Origin: a virus
Lineage: Duplodnaviria; Heunggongvirae; Uroviricota; Caudoviricetes
IMG/VR virus record: IMGVR_UViG_2859805564_000008
Length of the DNA stretch: 53,551 bases
Strand: one strand, 5' to 3'
In this document: positions 46,889 to 53,551 of the stretch, one piece after another
Layout of the letters: each line of letters opens with the position of its first letter
Numbering within the stretch: position 1 is the stretch's first letter
Position numbers and translations under genes: made by a program
Notes under the pieces: generated by a model
What the model saw: only the letters and a program-made list of their open reading frames with translations
Databases searched by the model: none
Told to the model about the DNA's origin: nothing

Positions 46889-46938
46889 ATTCGTAATGCG
46901 AAGGTCGTAGGTTCGACTCCTATTATCGGCACCATTAA
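46889..46938. repeat. attR core (50-bp direct repeat of the thrW 3' half)
   Basis: Identical to 1399-1448; not preceded by the tRNA 5' half. Confidence 0.85.
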
Positions 46939-47539
46939 GAAAATTAATAACTTAGCTTAACTTCTCTAAGAAATTGTATCTTCTGTTATCACTTACAAAC
47001 GCCTATACGTTGTTATGGGCTTTGGTAGTGTAACACGTATGGGCGAGTAGTTCCCAGGCTCAACCTCGTAACAAGTTCCTTTGAAGCTGGAAGACGTGCC
47101 ACCGTCTCTAAACCTTCTACCAAAACTCTTAGCAAGATGTTCCACACCTGGCGCGGTGTCCAATGATGCTACACGTCGTGAGACGTTGCAGAGGATAAAC
47201 AGGCTAAATGATGGGAAGAGTTTTAAGTGCAATAGTGGATTAAAGCCCACCTCTTCAAAACCTAACTTGATCGGGAAAGAATCAAGCTCTAGCACGGTTT
47301 CGTCCACCGGAGTACAACGGGTGCCTGATAAGAGAAGAACTGCTAAGACTTCATAGCTTTTGTGAAAAAGCCCTTTTTAGTGGATACGCCTACGGCGCTT
47401 ATTTTTTGGTATAACCATCAAAGGCGCTTTATGGCTCCTATTGTCTTGAAAATGTATCTTTACTTGTATTGTGTTTTATGCGTAGTCTCCCTGTGTAGTA
47501 TGTAACTTGTTAATTTTCATATGAATACAGAGGCACACG

Positions 47540-47698
47540 ATGAAAAACATTGCAGCAATCAAACGTAATAACCGCAAGATTCACGCTCGTAAGTTCCTGT
47601 CTACGCCAGAAGGAAAAGCCTGGCTAGAGCGTAAACAGAGAGAGAACGAAGAAAGAAAACTCCTTAGTGAGTTGAAATGGCTTAGAGAGGATTTCTGA
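47540..47698 (+). CDS. small basic hypothetical protein (52 aa)
   Basis: ATG preceded by GAGG; MKNIAAIKRNNRKIHARKFLSTPEGKAWLERKQRENEERKLLSELKWLREDF; below the ORF-track length cut-off. Confidence 0.3.
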   Translation: MKNIAAIKRNNRKIHARKFLSTPEGKAWLERKQRENEERKLLSELKWLREDF

Positions 47699-48689
47699 AA
47701 ATCTCCAGAACGCAACAGGACGCATTCTAACGCTGTTTTCATTACTCGGTATAGGGATAGGTGATGTGTGTTTAATGCGTCTGTGCGCTTGTTTTGTGCC
47801 TTATTTTGCATTTTCATAATGCGGAAGAGAACACGGAAAACCTTAAAATTAATTATTGGGGTATTTAAGGCTATTTTCAGGTGATTTAAGGGTATTAAAC
47901 TTGATTTAATTGATTAAAATATAAACAGATAATTATGTATCTTATTGATTTATAAGGTTATTTTTAAGTAAAGGTAAATAAAAAATAAATAGCCATAAAT
48001 AGCTATAAATACATCTTAATACCTATATCCCTTCCCTTATGGCTAGATTGCGAGAGGTGCTTAACGCGATTTTCAGCGCCCCCCGATCTGGAAAATCCAG
48101 AATCCCCAAATATCAGCAAGGAATTTTCTTGCGTAATCAACATCGTTTTTACCTATTAAATCATTACACAGAAAGCCTTTCTGTAATGTCTCTCACTAAA
48201 CTTTCACTAAACACGAGAATGATCGGTTTTATGTCGGATCAGATGCTAGAAACAGCACCACGTCTCACAAGGGCTGTAAGCGATGAAACCAGTGTTTATG
48301 CGGGTGCAGGTCAAAATATAGGCCAAAATCCATTTAACATAATAAATGTTATATGTGCTAAGGAACACATATAACGCCTTGAATTGATGTATCAGTGGAA
48401 AAGTGATGGATTTTTTACGTAGGAGCACGAAAGGGCTTCTATTGACTTTTGTGTGCTATGAAATATAATTAAAGTTTTTTGTTTTTATTGTGTGATGTGG
48501 TGGGTTACACAGGGGAATAGATTAAATGGTGTTCTGTTTATACAGGTTTATTTGTTAGATCAACAATTTGGCATTTCTAAACAGATGTTTGAACGTTGCC
48601 AAATGTCTTGACAACACAAGAAAAGGGCTTGCTATGCCAGGCATTATGAGGTGTACTGGCAATAGCGGACACTACCATTTGTTCTTTTT

Positions 48690-49508
48690 TTAAGCAGCCA
48701 TCTGATGATATTTTTCCCTGAAGGCTGCCGGGGAGATATTCCCCAGACGAGAGTGACGACGCTGACGATTGTAGAAAATCTCAATGTATTCCCGTATTAC
48801 TGAGATGGCTTCATCCCGGTTATTAAAACGATAGTGGCTCAGGCTCTCATTTTTCAGCGTTCCCCAGAAGCTTTCCATCGGAGCGTTGTCGTAACAGTTA
48901 CCTTTACGCGACATTGATGTTTTCAGACCAGACTGCTCCTGTATGACCCGGTAATCGTATGCGCAGTACTGTGAACCTCGATCAGAGTGGTGGATTAGCC
49001 CGGCAGGTGGGCGCTGGCTCCTGAGCGCCATAAACAGGGCTTTACCTGTCAGCTCTTTTGTCATGCGCTCTCCCATGGCGTAGCCGACAATTTCGCACGT
49101 ATAAACATCTTTGATGCCAGCGAGGTACAACCATCCCTCCTGTGTGGCAACATACGTCAGGTCCGCCACCCAGACCTGATTTGGTGCTGTAGGAGCGAAC
49201 GTCTGGTTCAGCAGATTTGGCGCAACTGGCAGATTGTGGTTCGAGTTCGTAGTCGCTCTGAACTTGCGTTTCTGCTTACAGCGTAGCCTTAGCTCCTTAC
49301 GAAGACGTGCCAGTCGGTCACGACCAACAATGATGCCATTCTCTGCCAGCTCCGTCTGGAGCCGCCGGGTTCCATATGTTTCGCGAGTGCGGATATGTGC
49401 CACCTTAATCTCCAGTTTTAGCCGCTCATCACTTTGTTTTCTGTCTGAGGGTTCATGCTGTACCCAGTTGTAATAACCGCTCCTGGATACACCAAATACC
49501 TGACACAT
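48690..49508 (-). CDS. IS3-family transposase OrfB (DDE catalytic domain)
   Basis: 272 aa with integrase-core motifs (VWVADLTY...HSDRGSQY...NAPMESF). Confidence 0.85.
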   Translation of the reverse strand: MCQVFGVSRSGYYNWVQHEPSDRKQSDERLKLEIKVAHIRTRETYGTRRLQTELAENGIIVGRDRLARLRKELRLRCKQKRKFRATTNSNHNLPVAPNLLNQTFAPTAPNQVWVADLTYVATQEGWLYLAGIKDVYTCEIVGYAMGERMTKELTGKALFMALRSQRPPAGLIHHSDRGSQYCAYDYRVIQEQSGLKTSMSRKGNCYDNAPMESFWGTLKNESLSHYRFNNRDEAISVIREYIEIFYNRQRRHSRLGNISPAAFREKYHQMAA

Positions 49509-49543
49509 CGCTTCAATGGGAAATTGTTGTCGCCATTGTTCGA

Positions 49544-49846
49544 TTAACGCGTATTTTTCAGCGACTCCTGTGCAAAATACGCTGTTGCTTTTTTTAATAT
49601 ATCTCGCTCAAGGCGAGCTTCATTTAACGCCTTACGCAGTTGCAGAATTTCAGATTCCAGTTCAGCCACCGTGCGGGAACCAGGAGTACCGAGCCCTTTT
49701 CTGGCGGCGGTAACCCATTGTCCTAAAGTGCCTTCAGGAAGAGATAATCGGGAAGCGCCTTCACTGATCGAAAGTTGATTTTCAGGAACCGTTCTGACAG
49801 CTTCGGCTTTGAACTCTTTAGAGTAACGTTGGGTTTTTCTGCTCAT
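49544..49846 (-). CDS. IS3-family transposase OrfA (HTH, leucine zipper)
   Basis: 100 aa with HTH and LxxxxxxL heptads, upstream of OrfB in a different frame. Confidence 0.85.
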   Translation of the reverse strand: MSRKTQRYSKEFKAEAVRTVPENQLSISEGASRLSLPEGTLGQWVTAARKGLGTPGSRTVAELESEILQLRKALNEARLERDILKKATAYFAQESLKNTR

Positions 49847-50384
49847 TATTAGCTCCTTCTGATGCCATTCTATTTCAGGAAGGAGTGTCCGTTAAACTCA
49901 GGCTACCTCATTACACGAAATAAGGCTATAAAAACAAAATAAATTTTAAAATTTGCACAAACGAGAAACTCGTTCAGAAACAAACAGAACAATTTTTAGC
50001 CAACAATTTCTGATGGTGCTCTGTAAGCCGCATTACACAAGGCTTTGCGAAAGTGATGTAAAAGTGAAGAAAGTAAGAATTGAACTTTTAAGCTACTTTT
50101 CATTGGATTTTTTAGTAGGGAATTACACAGGGAATAGAGAGCATTATTCTATGATTTACACAGGGAATATAGGGGGATTATGGCACACACATAGAAAGAC
50201 ATTACACAGAGTGCTATGTGACAAATGGATGTAACGAGAGGTTACATTCATTTATCTGAAATGCTCTCTGTAAGAAAGTTGGTAGTAACGATATATTACA
50301 TAGACTAATTATTGAATGTAACGATATTACACATCGGTAGTAACGATACGTTACATCGGAAGATGATTGGATGTAACGGTAGCT

Positions 50385-51825
50385 CACAGTGAACTAGGGG
50401 TAGGTCATAGTGAACTACCCCCACAGAATTCTGTTACCCCTATCAAGTCTGATACCCCTATCAAAACTGATACCCGATAAGTATAAATAACACCTAAATA
50501 GCTGCGCGGAATAGTAGATCACTTTGAGGGAACTTAGCCCGGATTGTGCGATCTGATCAATCGCCAAATCAAAACAAATCACCAACCGGACTGAGCAATG
50601 CCGATCATAGCACCAATTTCCCGTGACGAACGACGCCTGATGCAGAAAGCCATCCATAAAACACACGATAAAAATTATGCCCGCAGACTGACTGCCATGC
50701 TGATGCTGCACCGGGGCGACCGTGTCAGCGACGTTGCCAGAACGCTCTGCTGCGCCCGTTCCTCTGTTGGACGCTGGATTAACTGGTTCACGCAGTCGGG
50801 TGTTGAGGGACTGAAATCATTACCTGCCGGGCGTGCCCGTCGCTGGCCGTTTGAGCATATCTGCACACTGTTACGTGAGCTGGTAAAACATTCTCCCGGC
50901 GACTTTGGCTACCAGCGTTCACGCTGGAGTACAGAACTGCTGGCAATAAAAATCAATGAGATAACCGGTTGCCAGTTAAATGCCGGAACCGTTCGCCGCT
51001 GGTTGCCGTCTGCGGGGATTGTGTGGCGAAGGGCTGCGCCAACTCTGCGTATCCGTGACCCGCATAAAGATGAAAAGATGGCAGCAATCCATAAAGCACT
51101 GGACGAATGCAGCGCAGAGCATCCGGTCTTTTATGAAGATGAAGTGGATATCCATCTTAATCCCAAAATCGGTGCGGACTGGCAACTGCGCGGACAGCAA
51201 AAACGGGTGGTCACGCCGGGACAGAATGAAAAATATTATCTGGCCGGAGCGCTGCACAGCGGGACAGGTAAAGTCAGCTGTGTGGGCGGCAACAGCAAAA
51301 GTTCGGCGCTGTTCATCAGCCTGCTGAAGCGGCTTAAAGCGACATACCGTCGGGCGAAAACCATCACGCTGATCGTGGACAACTACATTATCCACAAAAG
51401 CCGGGAAACACAGAGCTGGCTGAAGGAGAACCCGAAGTTCAGGGTCATTTATCAGCCGGTTTACTCGCCATGGGTGAATCATGTTGAACGGCTATGGCAG
51501 GCACTTCACGACACAATAACGCGTAATCATCAGTGCAGCTCAATGTGGCAACTGTTGAAAAAAGTTCGCCATTTTATGGAAACCGTCAGCCCATTCCCCG
51601 GAGGCAAACATGGGCTGGCAAAAGTGTAGCGGTATTAAGCGCAGCTATTTAGGAAATGATTTCCGATCTATTTAGGAAGTAACCTAGGAAGTGGTTTCCT
51701 ACCTACTTAGGAAATGACTTCCACCAATACTATAATTAAATACTATAAATAATATTCTTTATACTATATAGGTCACTGTGAACTAGGGGGGTAGTTCACT
51801 ATGAGCTAGGGGGTAGGTCACTGTG
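50385..51825 (+). mobile_element. IS630-family insertion sequence (putative; ends approximate)
   Basis: Transposase flanked by ~40-bp imperfect inverted repeats beginning CACAGTGA; right end abuts IS1. Confidence 0.55.
50598..51629 (+). CDS. IS630-family transposase
   Basis: 343 aa, N-terminal HTH, C-terminal DDE-type region. Confidence 0.85.
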   Translation: MPIIAPISRDERRLMQKAIHKTHDKNYARRLTAMLMLHRGDRVSDVARTLCCARSSVGRWINWFTQSGVEGLKSLPAGRARRWPFEHICTLLRELVKHSPGDFGYQRSRWSTELLAIKINEITGCQLNAGTVRRWLPSAGIVWRRAAPTLRIRDPHKDEKMAAIHKALDECSAEHPVFYEDEVDIHLNPKIGADWQLRGQQKRVVTPGQNEKYYLAGALHSGTGKVSCVGGNSKSSALFISLLKRLKATYRRAKTITLIVDNYIIHKSRETQSWLKENPKFRVIYQPVYSPWVNHVERLWQALHDTITRNHQCSSMWQLLKKVRHFMETVSPFPGGKHGLAKV

Positions 51826-51880
51826 GGTGATGCTGCCAACTTACTGATTTAGTGTATGATGGTGTTTTTGAGGTGCTCCA

Positions 51881-52156
51881 GTGGCTTCTGTTTCTATCAG
51901 CTGTCCCTCCTGTTCAGCTACTGACGGGGTGGTGCGTAACGGCAAAAGCACTGCCGGACATCAGCGCTATCTCTGCTCTCACTGCCGTAAAACATGGCAA
52001 CTGCAGTTCACTTACACCGCTTCTCAACCCGGTACGCACCAGAAAATCATTGATATGGCCATGAATGGCGTTGGATGCCGGGCAACTGCACGCATTATGG
52101 GCGTTGGCCTCAACACGATTTTACGTCACTTAAAAAACTCAGGCCGCAGTCGGTAA
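51881..52156 (+). CDS. insA: IS1 InsA
   Basis: 91 aa, [42 protein letters not shown]... Confidence 0.95.
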
Positions 52157-52578
52157 CCTCGCGCATACAGCCGGGCAGTGACGTCATCGTCTGCGCGGAA
52201 ATGGACGAACAGTGGGGCTATGTCGGGGCTAAATCGCGCCAGCGCTGGCTGTTTTACGCGTATGACAGTCTCCGGAAGACGGTTGTTGCGCACGTATTCG
52301 GTGAACGCACTATGGCGACGCTGGGGCGTCTTATGAGCCTGCTGTCACCCTTTGACGTGGTGATATGGATGACGGATGGCTGGCCGCTGTATGAATCCCG
52401 CCTGAAGGGAAAGCTGCACGTAATCAGCAAGCGATATACGCAGCGAATTGAGCGGCATAACCTGAATCTGAGGCAGCACCTGGCACGGCTGGGACGGAAG
52501 TCGCTGTCGTTCTCAAAATCGGTGGAGCTGCATGACAAAGTCATCGGGCATTATCTGAACATAAAACACTATCAATAA
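52075..52578 (+). CDS. insB: IS1 InsB (expressed as InsAB' by -1 frameshift)
   Basis: Overlapping -1 frame ORF with IS1 InsB sequence. Confidence 0.9.
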
Positions 52579-52579
52579 G

Positions 52580-53551
52580 TTGGAGTCATTACCCAAGATT
52601 GCTCAACAGAAAGCTAAAACAGAAAAGCAGAATCAAAGAGCACAAGCTGCCGCAGCAAGAGCACAGGCAAGGCAACAGCAACAAATAGCAGCACGTAAAG
52701 AGAAAGCAGAATTAAAACTCCTTGATGTATCAAGCTCTATCAGTGCAATGCACCGTCTCTCTGTAGCGGAACAATACAAAGCTATTGCACAGGCTAGAGA
52801 GATAGCAAAACAATATGAGCAAGGGGCTATCAGCCTGGCGCGTATGAATAGTCAGATGAAACGCCTACAACAGCAACAACGTAAGATTAATGGCAACAGA
52901 AAAGCTCAATTTGCCCCCGTTAAGGGAGGATCAGGGAATTCCGCCACGATGGGCGCTCTGTTATTTGGAGGCGCTACGGCTGCTGCTGGCGTGATGGCTG
53001 TTAGTAAAACCTCTGAATTTATGGCTAACAGCTTTGCTAATGCTGAAACAGAAGGGGAGCTAATCCAACGTGCAAGGCTTGGTGGAGTTGATTACAACTT
53101 ACTTAATAATCTTGAGCGTTGGGCGTATGACAACGGGATCGATAGCCTCCAGGGTGATCCGGGACGCAGAAAAATACTAGATGCCATCGGTAAAGATGTA
53201 AAGGAACGCGCTACCAAAAGCTATGACGAGGCTGAATATGTAGTTGATAAGAAAACAGGGAAAGGCATATGGAAGGGCGGTGATTCTGGTATTAACACTT
53301 TAATGAATGAAGGATTCTTAACTAAAAAGGATTTGAAAGACTTTGCCAATAACTCTGCTGGTTTAATTTCAAAAGCTGTCAACGGAATGGTGAAAAAGGG
53401 CTATACCGACGCACAGATCGGTAGTCGTCTGGAAGATTTAGCGGACGACCTCCTCTTAACTTCTAAATATTGGCAAAGATCAGCCAGAGAGGTGCAGGCA
53501 AGCATTACCCAGCAAAAAGCCGCCGGACAATGGCTAACAGAAACACAGTAG
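52580..53551 (+). pseudogene. hypothetical gene, likely 5'-disrupted by IS1
   Basis: Reading frame opens inside the IS1 right end with no ATG for ~57 codons; Gln/Ala-rich coiled-coil region then hydrophobic Gly-rich segment; product not recognised. Confidence 0.35.

Follow-up and report, generated by a model that had tools for sequence, protein, structure and literature searches.

What kind of DNA lies beyond the right attachment site of the prophage that occupies thrW in the virus record IMGVR_UViG_2859805564_000008? The stretch analysed here, hereafter the window, comprises 53,551 nucleotides, and coordinates refer to it unless they are preceded by a record number (L001 for the island of E. 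coli E2865, which served as the reference, and other L numbers for further island and phage records). An earlier note on this DNA had taken positions 46939-50384 for the remains of another element, interrupted by insertion sequences (IS) and carrying repeats that resemble the iterons of a plasmid or satellite origin or of a partition locus. The interval 46939-51825 does not belong to the core chromosome but forms the left arm, almost devoid of genes, of an integrative island of 12.4 kb. The region noted earlier is thus real, but its right end was arbitrary since the repeat arrays run on to 50496, are broken by an IS630 and resume at 51650-51825 in front of an IS1. We consider it probable, though by no means certain, that the window holds, in inactivated form, a hitherto undescribed satellite that depends on phi92-like virulent phages, and that the island arm comprises a packaging module and an iteron origin.

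Identity and colinearity with other islands as well as the boundaries at the attachment (att) sites are directly established. The earlier note had called for a comparison with strains lacking the IS elements. In E. coli E2865 and APEC O1, the DNA that adjoins thrW on its 3' side is colinear with the arm, and the IS600 junction is uninterrupted. The att repeats that delimit the E2865 island are 28 bp long, agree in 26 of 28 positions and are 12,386 bp apart. Of 5426 complete E. coli genomes, 604 (about 11%) contain the arm next to thrW; its first segment (46939-48646) was detected in 605 E. coli records, 284 of which contain it at full length. A plasmid derivation found no support, the search of 72,556 plasmid records having returned three matches, two of them in records of chromosome size. 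Nor was a partition function borne out, as no ParA/ParB/ParR-type family was detected among the island proteins scanned with Pfam, PHROGs and NCBIfam.

Starting from thrW, the E2865 island consists of about 3.7 kb of almost gene-free DNA with only a 52-aa open reading frame (ORF), followed by two small genes, one of them weakly Arc-like, a 238-aa Rep whose O-like N-domain matches HTH_36 and PHROG "replication initiation", several small genes of unknown function, the gene of a major capsid protein (Phage_cap_E), a 609-aa tape-measure-like gene, a Dit-like gene and, on the opposite strand, a tyrosine integrase (PF00589 and DUF6538). Among its 13 ORFs, which are intact in hundreds of genomes, only the tape-measure-like protein and the integrase exceed 350 aa. 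Its recognisable structural proteins are limited to the capsid, tape-measure-like and Dit-like proteins. With respect to a head module, the proteins other than the capsid are at most 136 aa long or tail-related. Terminase, portal, sheath, tube and lysis families were not detected among the island proteins by means of Pfam and PHROG, and no ORF has a size or similarity that would fit a terminase or portal. Scans with PADLOC and NCBIfam revealed no defence genes in the island. Capsid homologs of 55-64% identity mark syntenic islands beside tRNA-Leu or tRNA-Gly genes in Citrobacter, Klebsiella and Enterobacter, so that tRNA targets are known across four genera, and remoter capsid homologs occur in Serratia and Sodalis. 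The family is spread over E. coli/Shigella, Citrobacter, Klebsiella and Enterobacter, and probably also Cronobacter and Serratia. The capsid protein was considered as a pointer to the helper and rejected, its identity to unrelated myovirus capsids amounting to only about 25%.

The island family appears to be undescribed. In the literature we found no description of a satellite of phi92-like phages or of a thrW satellite. The APEC O1 copy forms the thrW-proximal part of the reviewed 20-kb thrW pathogenicity island (295124-315041), which carries vat (PMC7545054); a treatment of its 12-kb part as a satellite, or a mention of its repeats, was not found in the literature.

The packaging part of the proposed reading is based on a phage-terminus-like site in the arm, which had been missed in the earlier note, although all of the features listed there were found. 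The core of this site (48048-48087) is identical in 40 of 40 positions to the reverse complement of phi92 318-357, a phage-terminus identity that is directly established. The match straddles the annotated end of the 343-bp direct terminal repeat (DTR) of phi92, with 14 bp outside and 26 bp inside the repeat, and the physical end of the phi92 genome, i.e. the inner boundary of the DTR, falls between 48061 and 48062. The left repeat of phi92 ends at 343 and the right genome end reads ...GCGTTA, which places the terminus between GGTGCT and TAACGCG. For BME3, a close relative of phi92, a DTR of 342 bp was determined by PhageTerm (PMC12210895). A sensitive BLAST search of the intact arm against 50,697 phage records yielded one kind of match, exclusively in Stephanstirmvirinae, covering 46 bp in 54 phi92-like (Justusliebigvirus) genomes and 68 bp in Citrobacter phage Tr1.

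A homologous site is located at the same place of the left arm in Klebsiella and Enterobacter islands, the best matches being Klebsiella Stephanstirmvirinae phages at record positions 321-367 and 482-541, near their left ends. The elements GTGCT|TAACG (the bar marks the genome end of phi92), CCC and AAATATC are invariant and occur at fixed spacing in four Stephanstirmvirinae phages and four islands from three genera. The linker between these blocks is variable; that of the Klebsiella island agrees with Klebsiella phages in 24 of 34 positions and with phi92 and Tr1 in 14-15 of 34. Each island carries one copy of the site. The corresponding block in the reference island (L001 7550-7624) is conserved at about 100% among E. 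coli islands, whereas its flanks are conserved at 88-95% and prone to indels, and the site is present in 427 of 5426 E. coli genomes, in 315 of them at an identity of at least 99%. A 127-aa ORF that spans the site was considered as a gene and rejected, as it is not conserved and is frameshifted or replaced in several lineages. Since the block is conserved and the overlapping ORF is not, the constraint acts on the DNA itself. As judged from these comparisons, the site may mimic a packaging signal and may be recognised by the terminase of phi92-like phages.

Alternatively, the site might be a regulatory promoter or operator that is read by a phage-encoded or phage-modified transcription factor and allows the island to sense infection. 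The satellites PLE and P4 are indeed switched on by products of their helpers. Moreover, the early-gene block of the phages begins shortly downstream of their site (position 699 is the start of the first phi92 gene), and the island site is located upstream of a promoter-like sequence and of the entire gene set. However, the centre of the invariant core coincides with the physical genome end of phi92, and no sigma-70-like hexamers were found at the site. Furthermore, GGTGCT|YAAC is present at both DTR boundaries of Tr1 as located by its alignment with phi92, whereas the left boundary of phi92 has diverged to AGGCT|CAAC, a pattern expected of a nuclease site rather than of a single promoter. Although it fares best among the alternatives, a regulatory role instead of a packaging function seems unlikely.

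Several further observations were made around the site. A degenerate copy of the terminus motif at 47860-47880 (repeat family D9) shares 17 of 21 positions with 48056-48076, at a distance of 196 bp. Direct repeats were also observed in Enterobacter L066 (4901-4916 and 5098-5113), so that a spacing of 196-197 bp, flanking or preceding the site, is common to E. coli and Enterobacter. These repeats might mark the boundaries of a terminal repeat of the satellite itself. When the island was searched for another strong terminus site, or for one resembling the left boundary, only the degenerate copy at -196 bp was found.

A search of genome contigs for the core of the site detected only two mis-binned E. 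coli-type contigs. The phi92-type site and the tape measure gene are also present in four records of 146 kb labelled "Campylobacter phage" (MG065639, MG065645, MG065656 and MG065689), which show the same identity as E. coli Justusliebigvirus genomes and whose host labels appear doubtful. In addition, L001 9673-9694 and phi92 at about 147,334-147,355 share 21 of 22 positions (TTAAAAATAAGsGGTCTAAA), a match of borderline significance that joins conserved non-coding DNA of the island to a non-coding region upstream of the right terminal repeat of phi92.

A second non-coding element links the arm to the same phages. Motif 2, a palindrome of the form TTGGCA...TAAACA..TGTTT...TGCCAAAT, is common to the island and the interior of the phage DTR. 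In phi92, phi1_175008 and FKP3 it is located 176/177 bp downstream of the cut motif and differs in 9-10 of 38 positions, while in Enterobacter islands it occurs at +75 bp with six mismatches. It follows the site in the same orientation and order in E. coli and Enterobacter islands and lies within a block (48505-48646) that is 98-100% conserved; none of 200 shuffled sequences reached 10 or fewer mismatches. In the record of Klebsiella phage FKP3 (L068), motif 2 was observed at 159 and 659, exactly 500 bp apart and near the left record end, which suggests a longer or duplicated terminal repeat in that assembly.

The tail-related genes of the island provide a directly established homology to the same phage group. 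For the Dit-like protein, the identity to the Justusliebigvirus tail-tube initiator amounts to 62% (E 2e-79); for the tape-measure-like protein, that to the tape measure proteins of these phages amounts to 35-37%. KMB37, the sole phage record showing both genes, has them close together and in the same order. The protein identities of 35-62% are far below the 100% identity of the non-coding 40-mer, which speaks against a site that gene transfer passively left behind.

This difference also bears on the explanation of the island as a prophage fragment in decay or as a defence island, whose capsid, tape-measure and Dit proteins act as decoys that poison the assembly of phi92-like phages, the 40-mer being a recombination leftover devoid of a function in cis. 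The tail gene homologs do stem from the same phage group, direct evidence of mobilisation is lacking, and interference of island-borne genes with tail assembly is documented (PMC11364771, PMC10884400). However, the 40-mer is fully conserved among unalignable flanks while the shared proteins have diverged, the invariant positions of the site are kept in islands of three genera with differing flanks, the Rep/iteron cassettes are actively exchanged, and the ORFs have remained intact in hundreds of genomes. In addition, no PADLOC defence family was found, and defence and satellite lifestyles would be compatible. We therefore regard the decoy explanation as quite improbable, and even less probable than a regulatory site.

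The origin part of the satellite reading concerns the repeats of the arm. The dyads of the type GTAACG...TTACA that had been called iteron-like belong to a five-copy family of 17-bp palindromes (TGTAAC-N5-GTTACA; dyadB). Their start-to-start spacing is a multiple of 11 bp, and every exact or one-mismatch match to GTAACG-N5-TTACA in the window is confined to a stretch of 160 bp. The dyads are followed by two further families, iterA and iterC. Past the IS630, the third segment of the arm holds three CCTAGGAAAT-type units (three CCTAGGAAATGAnTTCC-type repeats, the first of them split by the IS630), the AT-rich stretch AATAATATTCTTTATACTATATA and about three further iterA units of the GGTAGGTCA type. 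This segment is the beginning of a RepA-type origin core that is truncated by IS1. In the intact core of E2865 four tandem 22-bp iterons are located between two perfect 23-bp AT-rich repeats, of which the window keeps only the left copy (approximately 51747-51770). The periods of the arrays are multiples of 11 bp, 18 bp or 21-24 bp.

Not all of the repeats that had been reported earlier are of this kind. The AT-rich block at about 47830-48040 does carry direct repeats, namely ATTTAAGG at 47863 and 47885 and a 2.7-copy tandem array of ATAAATAGC at 47985-48011 (also written ATAAATAGCC), and its GC content falls from 30% (47800-47899) to 16% (47900-47999), but the block itself is not an iteron array. 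It is situated immediately left of the terminus-like site, between the site and the degenerate second copy. The motif noted on both sides of the IS600 is likewise real: TTACACAGGGAATA occurs exactly at 50123 and 50156, with 0.22 copies expected in the whole window, and a one-base-longer copy is found at 48505. Its TTACACA core is present in seven copies, all on the + strand (0.25 expected, at most three in 500 shuffles), the TTACACA(G) positions being 48164, 48505, 50033, 50123, 50156, 50202 and 50327. Their offsets are kept in nearly all E. coli islands regardless of the Rep type, whereas islands of other genera do not contain the motif. A partner binding to the TTACACAGGGAATAG motif was not identified.

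The islands related to the arm encode Rep proteins of 197-308 aa with matches to HTH_36, PHROG 270 and the O-like N-domain. Matches to replication-initiator or O-like PHROGs and to HTH_36 were obtained for all three types of Rep N-domain, and a helicase or primase domain was not recognisable in Rep. The repeat families were scored against the protein types in 17 distinct island contigs. Both the repeat architecture and the Rep/iteron covariation are directly established: RepA is paired with GGTAGGTCAYWGTGARCTA, RepB with TGTAAC-N5-GTTACA and RepC with ACAGAAnnCTGT. Islands with a RepA N-domain carry 2-6 GGTAGGTCA-type units, with the exception of L031, which has none in the available DNA, and the iterA family was seen only together with this N-domain type. 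Those with a RepC N-domain carry 4-5 ACAGAAnnCTGT units and at most one GGTAGGTCA unit, iterC forming a 4-5-copy array in RepC-type islands and in Citrobacter. Those with a RepB N-domain contain 4-5 TGTAAC-N5-GTTACA dyads and no other family, and dyadB is accordingly the sole array (4-5 copies) in the RepB-type islands L023 and L028. The Rep of Citrobacter, whose N-domain is 64% identical to RepC and whose C-terminal half is unrelated, is accompanied by an array of the ACAGAATTCTGT family, as is RepC. The main array of an Enterobacter island is of the TACCCCTATCAAnnnTGATACCCC family, and the CTGATACCCC family forms the main array in Enterobacter L065.

The iterons precede rep at a distance of 1.3-2 kb and are separated from it by two small genes. 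These two genes as well as the capsid type reassort independently of the Rep/iteron pairing, so that simple physical linkage is unlikely to be its cause. Repeat architecture and covariation with the Rep N-domain thus conform to the pattern which a Rep/iteron origin predicts, and support the view that the arrays are a replication origin to which Rep would bind. A partner for the repeats is therefore indicated in relatives by the covariation of the Rep N-domain type with the repeat family, and among the options considered in the earlier note a satellite origin is the best fit. The iteron-like character holds for the dyads, which are iteron-type sites with a Rep partner in relatives. The arm in the window is a RepA-type composite with RepA iterons and partial arrays of other specificities. 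As the dyads are the sole array only in RepB-type islands, they are probably non-cognate in this lineage. A pairing of the dyads with a 92-aa gene downstream of rep was considered and dropped, because further loci tied them to the RepB N-domain. The cognate initiator gene is present in relatives and has been deleted from this window.

That the arrays are operators for small helix-turn-helix (HTH) or ribbon-helix-helix (RHH) proteins, or a partition centromere, and not an origin is the least probable of the alternatives: their units are palindromic like repressor operators, an Arc-like RHH protein (a weak match) and a 92-aa protein are encoded nearby, and both the first gene and a strong promoter-like site (L001 10028-10056) are located downstream of the arrays, but the repeat family tracks the Rep N-domain and not the independently reassorting RHH or p62 alleles, Rep matches replication-initiator families, AT-rich flanking repeats suit an origin, and no ParA/ParB-type family was found among the island proteins scanned. 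An initiator that autoregulates through the same iteron sites would be compatible with the origin reading.

Taken as a satellite, the intact island would employ two modules. The first would be a copy of the genome-end processing region of phi92-like phages, consisting of the GTGCT|TAACG cleavage motif with its flanks (48042-48115) and the palindrome at 48568-48605. The terminase of the helper would recognise and cut replicated island DNA at this place, leading to its packaging into helper-derived particles in a manner analogous to P4, which carries the cos site of P2. The second would be the iteron origin at 50226-50496 and 51650-51825 with its dyad-symmetric tandem repeats of 17-23 bp. Here, the winged-helix N-domain of the lambda-O-like Rep would bind the iterons beside the AT-rich stretch and thereby initiate amplification.

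A close parallel is provided by P4, an integrative satellite adjoining a tRNA gene. P4 supplies the integrase and the functions for replication itself but has no terminase; it is packaged by the terminase of its helper P2, the cos site of which it contains in a near-identical copy. The island is likewise tRNA-adjoining, encodes integrase and replication genes, lacks a terminase and contains a putative copy of an end-processing site of the proposed helper. It differs from P4 in that the proposed helper is a virulent 148-kb myovirus with a 343-bp DTR and not a temperate cos phage, and in that it encodes its own capsid as well as homologs of the tape measure and the tail-tube initiator. Homologs of P4 sid, psu, delta and alpha (PHROGs and Pfam for the proteins) or a P2-type cos site were not found in the island.

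With the Rep-ori systems of phage-inducible chromosomal islands (PICIs) and Staphylococcus aureus pathogenicity islands (SaPIs), and with lambda O and ori-lambda, the island shares the winged-helix initiator, tandem dyad iterons next to AT-rich DNA and specificity modules that differ among related elements. In contrast to them, its iterons are found 1.3-2 kb upstream of rep and not inside it or immediately 3', its Rep has no recognisable helicase/primase domain, and the present lineage is a composite of several iteron families. Capsid-forming PICIs (cf-PICIs) possess a full head module (portal, protease, adaptors and small terminase) and borrow only tails. The island resembles them in encoding its own HK97-fold major capsid protein (Pfam Phage_cap_E), whereas it holds only the capsid of the head module together with tail-related genes. 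PLE of Vibrio cholerae, which depends on phage ICP1, and PICMI of Vibrionaceae are islands of 6-18 kb whose helpers are strictly lytic and whose replication follows infection (PMC10803314). In PICMI, the concatemers of which are packaged by headful, a pac or cos site is not identifiable (PMC10803314). The size class of a chromosomal island and the virulent helper, here a proposed one, are common to these elements and the present island; their gene content is not, and the island has a discrete site identical to a phage terminus. As regards the chromosomal site, the island coincides with VAT-PAI and PAI-APECO1-thrW, the descriptions of which concern the vat toxin or unrelated cargo, and it shares its att core with K-12 CP4-6, which has other gene content.

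A number of points weigh against the satellite reading. There is no evidence of excision, replication or packaging: island-length metagenome contigs end at att sites and are not circular, no circular or virion-type contigs were found among 25 metagenome loci (the contigs end at att or include chromosomal flanks), and a search of the capsid cluster, with a longest contig of 12.3 kb, yielded no evidence of a free form. Each island has a single strong terminus site, whereas the formation of a DTR needs two boundaries. A 12-kb genome would have to fit a capsid sized for 148 kb, and the island capsid is only about 25% identical to other myovirus capsids, with no match detected in the phi92 group. 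The sites of the Klebsiella and Enterobacter islands match sequenced phages less well (21-25 of 32 positions in the core), and motif 2 and the TTACACA motif are missing in some island lineages. With respect to the origin, the Pfam HTH_36 scores of Rep (19.9-24.2 bits) are below the curated cut-off of 25, and several of the 17 contigs underlying the covariation are closely related.

The features of the window and their coordinates are compiled in the following table.

Table. Features of the thrW locus and of the island arm in the window (L001, island of E. coli E2865).
Feature	Coordinates	Strand	Remarks
SfV/SfIV-like lambdoid prophage	1445-46888		inserted in thrW; integrase adjoining the tRNA gene
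thrW 3'-end copy, 50 bp	46889-46938	+	prophage attR; also att core bordering the older island
Island left arm, segment 1	46939-48646	+	97.7% identical to L001 6398-8160
p52, 52-aa ORF (MKNIAAIKRNNRK...)	47540-47698	+	annotated as WP_000788777.1 (PGAP) in E2865 and APEC O1
AT-rich block	47830-48040		16-30% GC; short direct repeats
Phage-terminus-like site	48042-48115	+	core 48048-48087, TTGCGAGAGGTGCT|TAACGCGATTTTCAGCGCCCCCCGAT; distal block CCCCAAATATC at fixed spacing
Sigma-70-like promoter consensus	48442-48469	+	TTGACT-16-TATAAT; reads toward the iterons; consensus match only
Motif 2, palindrome TTGGCATTTCTAAACAGATGTTTGAACGTTGCCAAATG	48568-48605	+	common to phage DTR interior
IS600	48647-49910	-	3-bp target duplication TTA at 48644-46 and 49911-13
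Island left arm, segment 2	49911-50496	+	91.4% identical to L001 8156-8724
dyadB iterons	50226-50388		five 17-bp palindromes TGTAAC-N5-GTTACA, spaced 54, 33, 22 and 33 bp
iterA (RepA-type iteron)	50378-50417	+	two 21-bp GGTAGSTCAYAGTGAACTA units
iterC	50418-50475	+	one CCCCCACAGAATTCTGTTACCCC unit, then 2.6 copies of TCTGATACCCCTATCAAA (18-bp period)
IS630, 1153 bp	50497-51649	+	in CTAG within CCTAGGAAAT repeat; TA duplication; perfect terminal inverted repeats
Island left arm, segment 3	51650-51825	+	83.5% identical to L001 8723-8915
IS1	51826-52593	-	98.8% identical to K-12 IS1 copies
Tape-measure-like gene remnant	52594-53551	+	from about codon 61, off the window end; 79% nucleotide identity to L001 14915-15863

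The window starts with proA and thrW, the intact tRNA-Thr(cgt) gene being located at 1369-1444. Across some 60% of its first 20 kb the adjoining prophage shows an identity of 95-97% with SfV, SfIV and E. coli phage 569R4. Together with the IS600, IS630 and IS1 copies it points to a Shigella or Shigella-like E. coli as the host. The copy of the thrW 3' end at 46889-46938 matches both the attL and the attR core of K-12 CP4-6 by 100%. Presumably, the SfV-like prophage integrated into thrW later and thereby pushed the older island off the tRNA gene.

The insertion similar to IS600 that had been noted earlier was confirmed by its target duplication. Segments 1 and 2 abut in E2865 and APEC O1 with a 3-bp overlap that corresponds to this TTA duplication, and the empty IS insertion sites, including that of the IS600, are present in E2865, the uninterrupted relative. 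Beside the IS1, about 6 kb of the island are gone (L001 8915-14915), comprising the remaining origin, p62, the RHH gene, rep, a winged helix-turn-helix (wHTH) gene, several small genes, the capsid gene and the 5' end of the tape-measure-like gene. The island picks up again at L001 14915. The ORF at 52580-53551 covers the tape-measure remnant, the intact homolog of which matches the tape measure protein family PHROG 16051 (E 1e-54). Because rep, the capsid gene and part of the origin have been lost and three IS elements have been inserted, the arm in the window is an inert fossil of which no activity of its own is expected.

As to the remaining features of the arm, the p52 protein is identical or differs by one residue in eight of nine aligned islands and is replaced in L017, and it matches no Pfam or PHROG family. 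The sigma-70-like promoter consensus is matched in 11 of 12 positions at the homologous place in the reference island (L001 7955-7982). Rfam scans of the window arm and of an intact arm detected thrW as the sole match.

In the reference island the iterons are separated from the first gene by about 1.1 kb of gene-free DNA (L001 9000-10160), which is deleted in the window. This stretch contains blocks conserved at about 100% (L001 9099-9221, 9293-9340 and 9390-9464) and GC-rich hairpin-like sequences. An Rfam scan of L001 9000-10160 returned nothing. The conserved DNA could represent an uncharacterised RNA or another cis element.

The arms of islands from Citrobacter, Klebsiella and Enterobacter (L061, L063, L065 and L066) carry cargo to the left of the terminus-like site that is absent in E. 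coli islands. It includes a tyrosine-recombinase-like gene of 186-205 aa, an HNH protein in L061, L062 and L065, and a Dam methylase in Klebsiella L063 and L064. Klebsiella islands furthermore contain two additional iteron families with a period of 32 bp. A derivation of the left 600 bp of the arm from a pseudogene of the small recombinase of other genera was ruled out, as no similarity was found.

For the window itself the practical conclusion is modest, namely that of an inert, IS-disrupted fossil. For the family as a whole we tentatively propose, as a serious possibility rather than the favoured outcome, that it represents unrecognised satellites across Enterobacterales which parasitise DTR-bearing virulent Stephanstirmvirinae by means of a copied cleavage site and DTR palindrome, exchangeable Rep/iteron cassettes and capsid and tail homologs of their own. 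If this is true, comparison alone would pin down the likely terminase cleavage motif of the phage subfamily, and the islands would indicate, for the first time, that a satellite exploits a helper which packages via short direct terminal repeats. Such a satellite would remodel both head and tail, which is undescribed for any satellite. The covariation of Rep and iterons makes a set of orthogonal origin-initiator pairs readily available. Phi92-like phages have very broad host ranges and are of therapeutic interest. A satellite aimed at these phages would then be present in roughly a ninth of the sequenced E. coli strains and in many strains of Klebsiella, Enterobacter and Citrobacter, and the islands could cut phage yield or spread on therapeutic phage preparations.

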